Assembly (NCBI GenBank): GCA_964535715.1
Contig: CAZHUO010000001.1
Location: 31,696-95,695, forward strand
Direction: 5' to 3'
Origin: an uncultured Gammaproteobacteria bacterium
GTDB lineage: Bacteria; Patescibacteriota; Patescibacteriia; Buchananbacterales; UBA6539
Length of the DNA stretch: 64,000 nt
Part shown: positions 48,527-53,720 of the stretch, piece by piece
Layout: each line of letters begins with the position of its first letter
Numbering within the stretch: position 1 is the first letter of the stretch
Notes under the pieces: generated by a model
Seen by the model: only the letters and a program-made list of their open reading frames with translations
Databases searched by the model: none
What the model was told of the DNA's origin: nothing
Position numbers and translations under genes: made by a program

Positions 48527-48958
48527 ATGCAAAATAAAAAAGGTTTTACTCTTATCGAATTGCTGGTAGTTATCGCCATTATCGGATTATTGTCGACTTT
48601 GGCGGTTGTCGCTTTAAATTCTGCCAGATCAAAAGCCCGCGATGCTAAAAGAATTGCCGATATCAAACAAATCCAAACCAGCCTGGAGCTTTATTTTAAT
48701 GATCAATCCGGTTATCCTGCCGCTACCGCTACTTTGGGCCTTTCAGGAGCTGCTTGTTTAGGAACTGCCGGCTTTGGAATTGCCGGTTGCGCTGATCCGT
48801 ATATGGGATTGGTTCCTTCTAATCCGACTCCGCAAGGAGCGGCCTATGTCTATACTTCTGCCGGTGCTGATACTTATACAATTTCATTTAATTTAGAAGG
48901 TACAACCGGCGGTCTTGCTTCAGGAGCTCATACTGCCAACCAAGACGGAATGCAGTAA
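48527..48958 (+). CDS. pilA: Type IV pilin (class III signal peptide), likely major pilin
   Basis: [30 protein letters not shown]: a G/F cleavage site, E+5, and a hydrophobic alpha1 helix. Confidence 0.85.
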   Translation: [143 protein letters not shown]

Positions 48959-49059
48959 TTTTTACATAATGGAAGCTTCCTAATAATTATCTAGCCCCGA
49001 CTATATGTCGGGGCTAGATTAGTATTAAATAAATGATTTAAAAATGCTATAATTTATCC

Positions 49060-51318
49060 ATGAATTTAAAAATTAAAAAAATATTTCCGCCGATTTTTCT
49101 GCTTATTTTGATTGTAATATTTTTATCGCCTTATTTATTCAGCCAAAATATTCCTTATGTCGGTGATTTTACCGGCAGTGATTTAACCGAACTTAATTTG
49201 CCGTTTCGTTATCTTTCATCATTGGCCTTAAAAAACGGTGAGATTCCTCATTTGACAGGGCTTTTGGCCAATGGCTTGCCGATTTTAGCCGAAGGCCAGG
49301 CAGGCGTTTTTTATCCGCTAAATTTTTTGTATATTTTTTTGCCGTTTTTTCTGGCAGTTAATTTGGCCCTGCTTTTGAATTTTTTTCTGGCCGGATTTTT
49401 CAGCTATATTTATTTCCGCATTTTGAAAATAAGCCAGATGGGTTCGCTTTTGGCCGCCGTCTCATTTTGTTTCAGCGGCTTTTTTATTTTCCGGCTCAAA
49501 CATTTGAATATGATTAATTCGGCAATTTGGCTACCGCTTGAGCTTTATCTTGTGGAGAGATATTTTTCCGAAAAAAAATCAAAGGCGATAAATTTGATTC
49601 TTTTAGCTTTGGTTTTTGCGCTTCAGTTTTTTGCCGGCCATCCCCAGATTTTTTATATATCTTTTTTGTCGGTATTTTTATATTTTTGCCTTAAGATTAT
49701 TTTTGCCAGCAAGGAAAAATTTTTCAGCAAATTAAAAGAAATTATTTTATTCTGGGTATTTGTGACAATTATTTTTTGTTCTGTTTCGGCAATCCAGCTG
49801 GTGCCCACATTTTTTTATGCCAAAGATTCTAGCCGTGGATTTGTGATGGATTATCTGCATACAAAGGAATTTCCTTATTTGGTCTCAAGCCTTCAATATT
49901 TTGTTTCCCCTTATTTTTTAGGAAATCCCTCAATAAACACTTATCCATCGGACAGGATAAAGGAATTCGGAGTTTTTTGGGAAAATAATTTTTATTTTGG
50001 CCTGCTGCCTCTTTTATTGGCTATTTATGCTTTATTATTCTTGTTTTTTAAAAAATTACAGGTAAGGATCTTATTTTTCCTGATTTTTTTGTCGCTACTT
50101 TTAAGCTTCGGGGCTTCTAATCCTCTTTTTCTTATTTTTTGGGAGCTTATTCCCGGATTTAAAATTTTCAGATTTCCGCAGAGGTTTATGATATTAGGCC
50201 TTGTCTGCCTGGCAGCATTAGCGGGTTTTGGTTTTGATTTTTTTTGGGACAAAATAAAAAAAAGCGCGGAAAAATTTAATTTTCTAAAAAATTCTAAATT
50301 ACTGTTTAATTCACTTCTGCCGCTTGTAATAATAATTATTATTGCCGCCGACTTGTTTTTAGTTGCCTATTCCTATCTTGGAGTTTTGGATTATAAGAAA
50401 TATTTCATTGACGAACCCAAAAGCGTAGAATTTTTAAAACAGGATAAGGATCATTATAAAATTTACAGTCTTGGCTGGCCTGAAGCTTGGAATCATATAA
50501 ATAATATTTCCGGAGGCTGGCAGAATAATTTTTCACTTTTTATTTCCGGCCGAGAGCTTTTACCGCCAAATTTAAATGTTTTTTGGGGAATTTCTTCAAT
50601 TCAAGATCGGGCATCTTTGGAAGGCGGAATGATTTCCAATGAATTATTCAATTTATCTTATTTATTGGATCAAAGTTTTAAAAAAAACGGGGAAGTAATT
50701 TTTGTTTCAGAGCAAACGCTTAAAATTTTGGGAATGCAAAATGTTAAATATCTGCTATCTTTTAGAGTTGTTAATTCGAATAATTTGATTTTAGTAAAAG
50801 AGATAAAAAATGATTTTTTGCCTTCTTTAAAAATTTACAAAAATAATTATTTTTTGCCTTTTGCTTTCGATGTTTTTAAAACAAGACGGGTCGAAGAAAA
50901 AAAGGAAATAGTCAAAGAATTATTTGATTTGAATTTTAATCCAAGTAATGAAATTATTTTGGATGAAGATTCACTTAATTATGAAAAAGATGGCCAAAAA
51001 GCTATTTTGGATTTTTATGAAAGAAGCAATAGCCGCTATGCCATTAATGTAGATTTCAGCCATGATGGCTACCTCTTTTTAAGCCAGTCTTTTGATAAAT
51101 TTTGGCAGGCTGAAATCGATGGGATCAAGTCTAATTTATTAAGAGCAAATTATGCCTTTATCGCCTTAAAAATATCTGCCGGTAGACACAATATTGTTTT
51201 TACTTACAAGCCTTTATATTACACGATAGGCAAATGGATAACTATTGTTTCTCTGATTTTTTTGGTTTTATTTCTATTTTATCATTATTTATTTAAGGAA
51301 AAAATAAATGAAAAATAA
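49060..51318 (+). CDS. Large polytopic membrane protein (~13 TM plus C-terminal soluble domain), GT-C-like glycosyltransferase architecture (YfhO-like)
   Basis: 752 aa. The first ~450 aa are almost entirely hydrophobic helices. A ~300-aa C-terminal domain follows. Confidence 0.6.
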   Translation: MNLKIKKIFPPIFLLILIVIFLSPYLFSQNIPYVGDFTGSDLTELNLPFRYLSSLALKNGEIPHLTGLLANGLPILAEGQAGVFYPLNFLYIFLPFFLAVNLALLLNFFLAGFFSYIYFRILKISQMGSLLAAVSFCFSGFFIFRLKHLNMINSAIWLPLELYLVERYFSEKKSKAINLILLALVFALQFFAGHPQIFYISFLSVFLYFCLKIIFASKEKFFSKLKEIILFWVFVTIIFCSVSAIQLVPTFFYAKDSSRGFVMDYLHTKEFPYLVSSLQYFVSPYFLGNPSINTYPSDRIKEFGVFWENNFYFGLLPLLLAIYALLFLFFKKLQVRILFFLIFLSLLLSFGASNPLFLIFWELIPGFKIFRFPQRFMILGLVCLAALAGFGFDFFWDKIKKSAEKFNFLKNSKLLFNSLLPLVIIIIIAADLFLVAYSYLGVLDYKKYFIDEPKSVEFLKQDKDHYKIYSLGWPEAWNHINNISGGWQNNFSLFISGRELLPPNLNVFWGISSIQDRASLEGGMISNELFNLSYLLDQSFKKNGEVIFVSEQTLKILGMQNVKYLLSFRVVNSNNLILVKEIKNDFLPSLKIYKNNYFLPFAFDVFKTRRVEEKKEIVKELFDLNFNPSNEIILDEDSLNYEKDGQKAILDFYERSNSRYAINVDFSHDGYLFLSQSFDKFWQAEIDGIKSNLLRANYAFIALKISAGRHNIVFTYKPLYYTIGKWITIVSLIFLVLFLFYHYLFKEKINEK

Positions 51319-53116: not shown

Positions 53117-53219
53117 AGAAGAAAATTAAAATAGTACTCCTATTTTTACTCAATATCTGTTTTTTGATTTTTAAATATGCTATGATTAAATTAAGTGTTT
53201 TTACTTTTTTTGCAAAGAA

Positions 53220-53720
53220 ATGAAAAAAAATATATCAGACAAAAATGGATTTACCCTTATGGAGCTGATAGTGGTAGTTGCCATTATCGGAATTTTATCA
53301 ACTGCAGGCATTATTGCTTTTGGCATGACCAGGCAAAAATCCAGAGATGCAAAAAGGCTAGCCGACATTAAACAGATTCAGAATTCTTTGGGACTTTATT
53401 ATGCCGATAAAAATCAATATCCGCCCCAGGGAATAGGAGGCTATGTTTTGGGAAGCGACGTTTTATGTCTTGACTCCGCTGGTTTTAGTTCAGAATGTTT
53501 TAGTAATATTTATATGAAGTCAGTTCCTTCAAACCCTTTGCCTAAAGGCCAGGGCTATCTATATAATTCATATGCTGCTGACGGCAGCCAATGCAGCAAC
53601 GGTTTAAACCAGCTATGCATTAATTACAGCATTATTTTTGCTCTGGAGGGTAAGACTCAAGAGCTAGGGGATCCTGGCATTTTTATTGCCAACCAAAATG
53701 GGATTAAAGCTCAGCAATGA
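53220..53720 (+). CDS. Second type IV pilin
   Basis: [34 protein letters not shown] prepilin leader. Confidence 0.8.
   Translation: [166 protein letters not shown]

Follow-up and report, generated by a model that had tools for sequence, protein, structure and literature searches.

The question raised by the 64-kb stretch of DNA analysed here (referred to below as the window, in whose coordinates positions are given unless a relative is named) is why two large polytopic membrane proteins should be encoded between two pilin genes inside a type IV pilus operon. A first-pass annotation had suggested that these proteins glycosylate pilin, and all four open reading frames (ORFs) that it had described at 48527–53720, two pilins flanking the two large membrane proteins, were found on the + strand together with the peptides it had quoted. 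Our comparative genomics and structure prediction give good support to a reading of this locus as a module for pilin O-glycosylation that forms part of the type IV pilus operon in a bacterium of the Candidate Phyla Radiation (CPR), to which we assign a probability of about 0.6, and the mechanism that we propose for it is plausible. The parts of this reading differ in strength: both large proteins are almost certainly glycosyltransferases of the GT-C class, the module is very probably tied functionally to the pilus, and pilin itself is the acceptor that we consider likely. The features of the module and its immediate surroundings are as follows.

48433–48461, + strand: promoter-like site TTGCCA-17-TATAAT upstream of pilin1, an 11/12 consensus match
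approximately 48513–48522, + strand: strong ribosome-binding site (RBS), AAAGGGGGTG, read from the sequence 5' of pilin1
48527–48958, + strand: pilin1, a GspG-like type IV pilin of 143 aa (N_methyl 1e-9, T2SSG 5e-5)
48989–49019, + strand: hairpin with a 13-bp stem, directly 3' of the pilin1 stop codon
49060–51318, + strand: YfhO-family protein of 752 aa (PF09586)
51308–53116, + strand: DUF2723/TMEM260-like protein of 602 aa (PF11028 1.1e-40)
53220–53720, + strand: pilin2, of 166 aa (N_methyl 2.2e-7, with a T2SSG match)
53849–54595, + strand: PilD prepilin peptidase/N-methylase (A24_N_bact 1.8e-33, Peptidase_A24 5.9e-10)

The DUF2723/TMEM260 signature recognised earlier in the second of the large proteins was borne out by Pfam (PF11028, TMEM260-like, with 139.8 bits against a cut-off of 24.2 over residues 36–188, and a PMT_2 match as well), and relatives of this protein carry the NCBI name 'glycosyltransferase family 117 protein' (GT117). 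A profile built from 40 homologues matched the solved human TMEM260 (9rql) with E = 2.9e-77 over some 460 residues, and in the profile alignment 'GGD52SGEL' of TMEM260 pairs with 'VED36SGEL' of the window protein, in which D36, E39 and H51 are invariant across the 40 sequences. In TMEM260 the D52A substitution abolishes O-mannosylation, and superposition brings D52 onto D77, the catalytic residue in Pmt1 of yeast (PMC10214176). The AlphaFold2 (AF2) model of the window protein (predicted local distance difference test score, pLDDT, 92.9; predicted template modelling score, pTM, 0.93) and the Foldseek matches obtained with it describe a GT-C fold with about 11 transmembrane (TM) helices, the matches in PDB being PglB, STT3, ArnT, ALG12, AftB and Pmt4 (E from 9e-8 to 5e-4). 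It should be noted that the solved TMEM260 entries (9rql–9rqn) were absent from the Foldseek PDB matches of this model, so that the link to TMEM260 rests on the sequence profile. Residues 393–602 form an alpha/beta region with terminal helical hairpins in the model; TPR matches were weak (E 0.06–1, profile positions 557–595) and Pfam gave no TPR match.

The first large protein had been described as YfhO-like, and this too was confirmed (PF09586, 59.8 bits against 28.5), with the best stretch lying only in the C-terminal part (658–728) and with PF09586 carried by all homologues that we found for it. Its profile gave no match to solved structures by sequence; its AF2 model (pLDDT 93.4), which ends in an outer C-terminal beta-domain (541–716) and a last helix (719–751), matched AftD, STT3, AglB, DPY19 and AftA in Foldseek. 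Among 45 homologues D41 of the first outer loop is invariant and D36 is conserved in at least 90%, and these two residues may be catalytic. The scores against the NCBIfam equivalogs for PgfM1 and PgfM2 (NF047589 and NF047590) were 40.8 and 27 bits against thresholds of 1500 and 1400, and judged by sequence the window protein is best regarded as a member of the family and not as a PgfM orthologue. Both large proteins have basic N-termini followed by TM1, and from the positive-inside rule their acidic first loops are predicted to lie outside the membrane. All significant Foldseek PDB matches of the two models were GT-C enzymes, in keeping with the GT-C assignment first made for them. We rejected the reading of these proteins as transporters or unrelated membrane proteins, transporter structures having appeared only at E > 0.2 with TM-scores of about 0.1.

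The closest homologues come from metagenome-assembled genomes (MAGs) of Falkowbacteria, Buchananbacteria and the 'Parcubacteria/Patescibacteria group', and we therefore take the host to be a CPR bacterium. The closest relative of the window (L011, DUF2723 identity 69%) and two other loci (L014 and L019) are labelled 'uncultured Gammaproteobacteria bacterium' yet have CPR-type pilus operons, and these taxonomic labels are probably wrong.

We sampled DUF2723 loci from one genome per GTDB species and from Joint Genome Institute (JGI) metagenomes, kept 160 loci which were annotated by phmmer using the window proteins, and defined clades from a neighbour-joining tree. This placed the window in a clade of 15 loci, 13 of which have PilB, PilC or PilD plus a pilin within 3 kb, and the two loci lacking pilus genes are contigs of 2.8 and 4.4 kb. 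Context look-ups of individual DUF2723 homologues found a pilus operon in seven out of eight cases (the window itself counted), with the pilus-linked proteins sharing 52% (P0020), 48% (P0036), 37% (P0064), 36% (P0058 and P0061) and 35% (P0077) identity with the window protein, and in these the DUF2723 gene sits 3' of a pilin and 5' of PilD. The gene order with pilins is conserved in relatives, as the first-pass annotation had required of its reading, and because this synteny is kept we rejected a chance insertion as the explanation of the co-location. In one locus of this kind (L014, 2695–5787) a restriction–modification island is the sole separation of DUF2723 from PilD; the island comprises two DNA C5-methyltransferase-like genes and an HNH-type gene, as judged by sequence only.

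The slot between pilin and PilD varies in gene content among the relatives as known glycosylation islands do, and behaves like a diversifying glycosylation island. It holds DUF2723 alone in L007; DUF2723, GT2, a 429-aa membrane protein, GtrA and an S-adenosylmethionine (SAM) methyltransferase in L004 (12052–15641) and L175 (10030–13641); YfhO, a GT2–methyltransferase fusion and DUF2723 in L173 (6518–7996); and YfhO, a 465-aa polytopic protein and DUF2723, with or without a methyltransferase, in L010 (2828–4231), L013 (7996–9958) and L093 (8557–9954). The closest relative has a YfhO–methyltransferase fusion (P0122 in L011), and in L098 (2672–12067) YfhO, three PMT_2 proteins and DUF2723 make up five GT-C genes 3' of PilB–PilC–pilin. 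Pfam returned no match for the 465-aa and 429-aa membrane proteins of these relatives. YfhO is found in the CPR module only in the nearest subclade of the window, in L173, and beside DUF2723 on a short contig (L103). The two enzymes had been presented as a GT-C pair and both are indeed GT-C, but their standing in the pilus-linked module differs: DUF2723 makes up its conserved core, and YfhO is an accessory whose occurrence is clade-restricted.

The variable genes can be set against a three-component scheme in which a cytoplasmic GT2 enzyme loads polyprenyl phosphate, a GtrA-type protein helps with flipping, and a GT-C enzyme makes the transfer outside (PMC7389260, PMC11194591). This logic applies to the clade, given the GT2 and GtrA genes in L004 and L175, the GT2–methyltransferase fusion in L173 and the GT2–GtrA fusion in L063; the set is incomplete in the window, where the GT-C enzymes only are present.

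The association of DUF2723 with pilus genes recurs outside the clade. In a Woesebacteria locus (L054, 6941–11773) a DUF2723 gene whose product shares 29% identity with that of the window is accompanied by GT2 and a GT2/GT4 fusion, on the opposite strand, and this trio separates the pilin/PilC side of the pilus locus from its pilin/PilD side in what appears to be an independent GT117–pilus linkage. Three gammaproteobacterial loci (L062, 6970–19053; L063, 3171–17576; L169, 4856–16894) have the order pilS–pilR–...–DUF2723–pilA, with pilins that are true PF00114 members, and each looks like a rich pilin-modification island: a GT2–GtrA fusion and a sulfatase+GDPD protein lie upstream in L063, a TPR-sulfotransferase and a second PilA are found in L062, and additional GT2 and GT4 genes are present in both L063 and L169. 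Directly after pilA in all three is a gene for a membrane/TPR-like protein of about 630 aa with the loop-1 motif 'F(I/L)xDDxxN'. DUF2723 also closes a PilB–PilC–pilin–minor-pilin operon (L056), stands directly before PilB–PilT–PilC (L164) and adjoins PilD (L072). In the high-GC Burkholderiales loci (L033, L045 and L131) naive ORFs were overlapping and spurious, and only phmmer matches were used. Diderm Gammaproteobacteria lack teichoic acids, and the position of DUF2723 beside pilA in these bacteria therefore makes the pilus or pilin a better candidate for the common target than a wall polymer.

Both proposed substrates are type IV pilins, each with a basic leader, G-1 and a hydrophobic helix with E+5, and with a prepilin peptidase encoded in the locus; the signals are of class III (KKG/FTLIEL in pilin1 and KNG/FTLMEL in pilin2, the slash marking the cleavage site, with G-1/F+1/E+5). 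They are paralogues sharing 46% identity, pilin2 having an extra Cys–Cys loop and a weak RBS, and this Cys loop recurs in the downstream-type pilins of L002, L012, L013, L093 and L094. Pilin1 is the probable major pilin, since its promoter-like site, strong RBS and hairpin are what is usually seen around a major pilin gene with high expression, and pilin2 is a possible second acceptor. The promoter-like site is the best match to the promoter consensus within 43500–58000, though a consensus match only, as promoter-like sites were not enriched over shuffled sequences (48 against 47.6 expected, which makes the scan uninformative); the scan for terminator-like sites was also uninformative (22 against 14.8 ± 4.0). 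The region containing the hairpin (48959–49059) folds with a minimum free energy of −30.6 kcal/mol (z = −5.7, 0/200 shuffles as good), no clean U-run follows the stem, and the hairpin may act as a terminator, an attenuator or a stabiliser of the mRNA. We note that the public gene call for pilin2 (9692–10141 of the identical contig L001) begins 17 codons inside the ORF, with the loss of the prepilin leader and cleavage site, and this late start probably explains why pilin2 has no precomputed Pfam annotation. The Ser/Thr/Gly/Ala-rich C-terminal regions that had been ascribed to both pilins are evident in pilin1 and weaker in pilin2, and are formed by a conserved motif, LEG(T)TGGL..G.HTA(N/S)(Q/P)DG(I/M)Q, and not by a disordered low-complexity tail. 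The conservation of this motif includes its Thr positions, which may be regarded as candidate glycosylation sites.

From gene content and order, family membership, the GT-C folds, the conserved catalytic residues and the conserved synteny we infer an acceptor, a sugar, a donor and a division of labour between the two enzymes. Prepilins would enter the membrane and be processed by PilD and, before or after this cleavage, the DUF2723 enzyme would O-glycosylate Ser/Thr residues of the pilin globular domain, using a polyprenyl-phosphate-linked sugar as donor and making the transfer outside the cytoplasm. The YfhO enzyme, whose gene is translationally coupled to that of DUF2723 (the YfhO stop and DUF2723 start overlap by 11 nt), might then extend the glycan, or might serve a second site or the paralogous pilin2. 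The lipid-linked donor would be made in the cytoplasm by a GT2 enzyme (GtrB/DPM1-like) and flipped by GtrA; relatives have genes for these two proteins within the module, and in the genome of the window both genes must be located elsewhere. Protein O-glycosyltransferases have been proven in both families, TMEM260 in its own (PMC10214176), and PgtC2 and PgfM1, which work with GtrB/PgfS, in the YfhO family (bioRxiv 10.1101/2024.05.05.592596).

Several observations weigh against pilin as the substrate. The acceptor is deduced from gene context and not from a glycan detected on a pilin, and the C-terminal pilin motif seems structural, unlike the Ser/Thr-rich disordered regions that are modified by streptococcal YfhO enzymes. 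The module lacks genes for GT2, GtrA and sugar activation, and the 64-kb window holds no such gene with a clear role in it, so that the gene of the donor synthase must lie in another part of the genome. One of the look-ups (P0092, 33% identity) showed no pilus linkage, nor did YfhO homologues with identities of about 30% or below, and outside the CPR clade about 150/160 of the sampled DUF2723 loci have no pilus genes. DUF2723 genes are also found in tandem arrays with no nearby pilus genes (L016, 9998–21704; L025, 9685–15000; L168, 7551–13500), an Armatimonadota MAG having six paralogues and Elusimicrobia-type loci having three, which suggests other acceptors for the family. This lack of pilus context at most loci beyond the clade, together with the tandem paralogue arrays, means that the DUF2723 family as a whole is not pilin-specific.

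These points lend some weight to the reading that the GT-C pair acts on another envelope component (a teichoic-acid-like polymer, an S-layer or other surface proteins) and occupies its position in the operon only for co-expression, for example in wall remodelling at the pilus exit. The best-known YfhO enzymes, those of Bacillus subtilis and Listeria, glycosylate lipoteichoic or wall teichoic acid (PMC5836110, PMC7389260), pilus linkage is missing for most DUF2723 genes of bacteria, and the window holds neither donor genes nor evidence of the acceptor. Clusters of YfhO and DUF2723 with no pilus genes also occur in non-CPR loci (L091, 10001–19603, with the order YfhO–DUF2723–YfhO–YfhO; L153, 3010–9000; L052; and L078), and the two families may often be partners. 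We nonetheless consider this reading improbable, as the pilin–PilD slot is fixed across deep CPR divergence, DUF2723 lies beside pilA in the teichoic-acid-free Gammaproteobacteria described above, and the only characterised enzyme of the DUF2723 family acts on a protein (PMC10214176).

A variant of the pilin-glycosylation model, rather than a competitor to it, is that the two enzymes act on separate acceptors and do not build a single glycan jointly, with pilin1 served by DUF2723 and either pilin2 or the minor pilins by YfhO, or with these roles exchanged. Two pilin paralogues do flank the pair, and loci lacking YfhO often lack the downstream Cys-loop pilin as well (L004, L007 and L096); against this L011 has YfhO yet no downstream pilin, the YfhO and DUF2723 genes are translationally coupled, and loci with three to five GT-C genes have only one to three pilins (L098 and L013), which stepwise extension fits better. 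We think it unlikely that the labour is divided in this manner. A role in pilus assembly, whether structural or as a chaperone, for example as a membrane scaffold with transferase activity reduced or lost that would serve a lineage lacking some alignment or secretin components, would suit the conserved gene position inside the machinery operon and has a precedent in TfpY, a pilA-adjacent accessory which acts in assembly and not modification (PMC11841053), but is very improbable given the catalytic Asp and loop-1 motif invariant in 40 DUF2723 sequences, the D41 invariant in 45 YfhO homologues, and the GT2, GtrA and methyltransferase genes of relatives, which are sensible only with an active glycosylation pathway.

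The complete, co-directional type IV pilus operon into which we place the glycosylation module fills the + strand of the window over 40626–57496, and its remaining genes are listed here.

40626–41801, + strand: PilM, at the start of the operon (Pfam PilM_2 1.1e-37)
41817–42911, + strand: PilN-like (Pfam PilN 8.6e-4, below its cut-off)
42966–43619 and 43540–43938, + strand: two small unassigned ORFs after the PilN-like gene
43947–45671, + strand: PilB (MshEN and T2SSE; Pfam, identical contig L001)
45707–46081, + strand: response regulator (Response_reg; Pfam, identical contig L001)
46092–47162, + strand: PilT (T2SSE; Pfam, identical contig L001)
47176–48381, + strand: PilC (T2SSF; Pfam, identical contig L001)
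54595–55209, 55202–55774, 55761–56621 and 56624–57496, + strand: four minor-pilin-like genes

The order of PilM, the PilN-like gene and the two small ORFs is the same in relatives L004, L007 and L175, and relatives have the same four genes 3' of PilD. N_methyl is seen in three of the four minor pilins, the third of the genes scoring above the cut-off (4.5e-8) and the first and second just below it (8e-4 and 4.3e-4), and a DNA ligase gene comes after the four. The stand-alone response-regulator receiver gene between PilB and PilT keeps this position in the majority of related CPR operons, L002, L004, L009, L011, L013, L093, L173 and L175, and is absent in L007. Directly upstream of pilM (36445–40610) are genes for a 762-aa YadA-head-repeat protein and an unassigned 605-aa protein, possible adhesins co-located with the pilus operon. 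Further away the window encodes a 3394-aa protein with CBM_4_9 domains (47–10231), followed by type IV secretion-like genes (TrbL/VirB6, 10446–13868; PrgI, 18821–19294; a VirB4/TraG-like ATPase, 19997–21892) with a SAM synthetase (16120–17295) embedded among them (10446–21892). Rfam reports a tRNA at 60351–60425 on the − strand (39.7 bits), where ARAGORN makes no call.

Among CPR/Patescibacteria the type IV pilus is a conserved organelle of the cell surface, and a glycosylation module hard-wired in the pilus operon would mean that these pili are sugar-coated. In cultivated Saccharibacteria type IV pili drive host binding and competition, and the study which established this only predicts glycosylation sites, asks for their confirmation, and calls pilin glycosylation in the group unexplored (PMC11623550). 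Such a coat would bear on host recognition, on phage evasion (shown for TfpO/TfpW in Pseudomonas) and on the reading of pilus cryo-electron microscopy maps. That a GT-C enzyme encoded beside a pilin gene can glycosylate pilin is already known; what is new here is that the CPR pilus operon has enzymes of GT117 and YfhO among its conserved parts, and the hypothesis of function for bacterial GT117 that results. Full-text literature searches, which did not cover all journals, found no role described for bacterial DUF2723/GT117 proteins, no paper that links DUF2723 to pilin or TMEM260 to pili, and no glycosylation module described in CPR pilus operons.

More speculatively, bacterial TMEM260/GT117 proteins could be type IV pilin O-glycosyltransferases which, in CPR bacteria, head a variable stepwise extracytoplasmic line (comprising GT2, GtrA and methyltransferase as well as between one and five GT-C enzymes) that builds lineage-specific pilus glycans from lipid-phosphate monosaccharides, a generalisation which we advance tentatively and at less than even odds. 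If true, this would be the first function for bacterial DUF2723, would point to a prokaryotic origin of the metazoan developmental O-mannosylation pathway, and would provide a diversifying surface coat for the organelle that episymbiotic CPR cells use for reaching their hosts. The proposed glycosylation module would itself give bacterial DUF2723/GT117 a testable function, and offer a tractable prokaryotic model of a family mutated in human SHDRA syndrome (structural defects of the heart with anomalies of the kidney).

Among known systems, human TMEM260 (GT117), the O-mannosyltransferase of IPT domains, is a true sequence homologue of the DUF2723 protein, with the loop-1 'D-S-G-E-L', the catalytic Asp, a GT-C fold and a putative C-terminal extracytoplasmic domain in common. 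The C-terminal domains diverge, with only residues up to about 475 aligning, and the window enzyme would use an undecaprenyl-type donor in place of dolichol-P-Man and would act on pilin in place of an IPT domain. The streptococcal PgtC2/GtrB and PgfM1/PgfM2/PgfS systems resemble the module in having YfhO-family GT-C enzymes, which move single undecaprenyl-phosphate-linked sugars to extracytoplasmic Ser/Thr and are sometimes paired in one operon (bioRxiv 10.1101/2024.05.05.592596; PMC5856776), but their acceptors are Ser/Thr-rich disordered tails and adhesins and not pilins, and they have a GT2 partner whereas the window has none. PglL/PilO/TfpO enzymes also perform periplasmic O-glycosylation of type IV pilins, with tfpO directly downstream of pilA, but are O-antigen-ligase-like and transfer en bloc from an undecaprenyl-diphosphate-linked oligosaccharide; no O-antigen-ligase-like (Wzy_C) match was found for any module gene in Pfam or NCBIfam. 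The archaeal AglB, which glycosylates type IV pilins and archaellins and was one of the structures matched by the YfhO model, differs in belonging to another GT-C family (GT66), in being N-linked and en bloc, in using a dolichol-linked oligosaccharide, and in lying as a rule outside pilus operons.

The closest working analogue appears to be TfpW of the Pseudomonas aeruginosa group IV strains Pa5196 and PA7, a comparison made by description. The first-pass annotation had called the window enzymes unrelated to both PglL/PilO and TfpW, which is correct for PglL/PilO/TfpO and does not hold in fold and logic for TfpW, itself a GT-C enzyme beside pilA. TfpW is a GT-C protein of 646 aa that has 11 TM helices, a DDX motif in loop 1 that is essential, and a TPR domain at its C-terminus in the periplasm (bioRxiv 10.1101/2020.04.19.049825), and it arabinosylates pilin Ser/Thr in the periplasm from a polyprenyl-phosphate-linked sugar (bioRxiv 10.1101/2020.04.19.049825; PMC11841053). 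It should be noted that our gammaproteobacterial DUF2723 search returned no named Pseudomonas or TfpW protein among the top 120 homologues, and that it is the protein of about 630 aa encoded after pilA in L062, L063 and L169 that holds the position of TfpW, the candidate in L063 being unrelated to the DUF2723 profile (hhalign probability 0.6%). TfpW uses D-arabinofuranose (D-Araf) from a dedicated cluster and the window genes come with no such cluster, there being no D-arabinofuranose donor genes among the Pfam-scanned ORFs of the 64-kb window. Both systems have in common a GT-C gene adjoining a pilin gene, and differ in that TfpW is a single GT-C enzyme whereas the window has two, a GT117 and a YfhO enzyme, both encoded inside the machinery operon itself.

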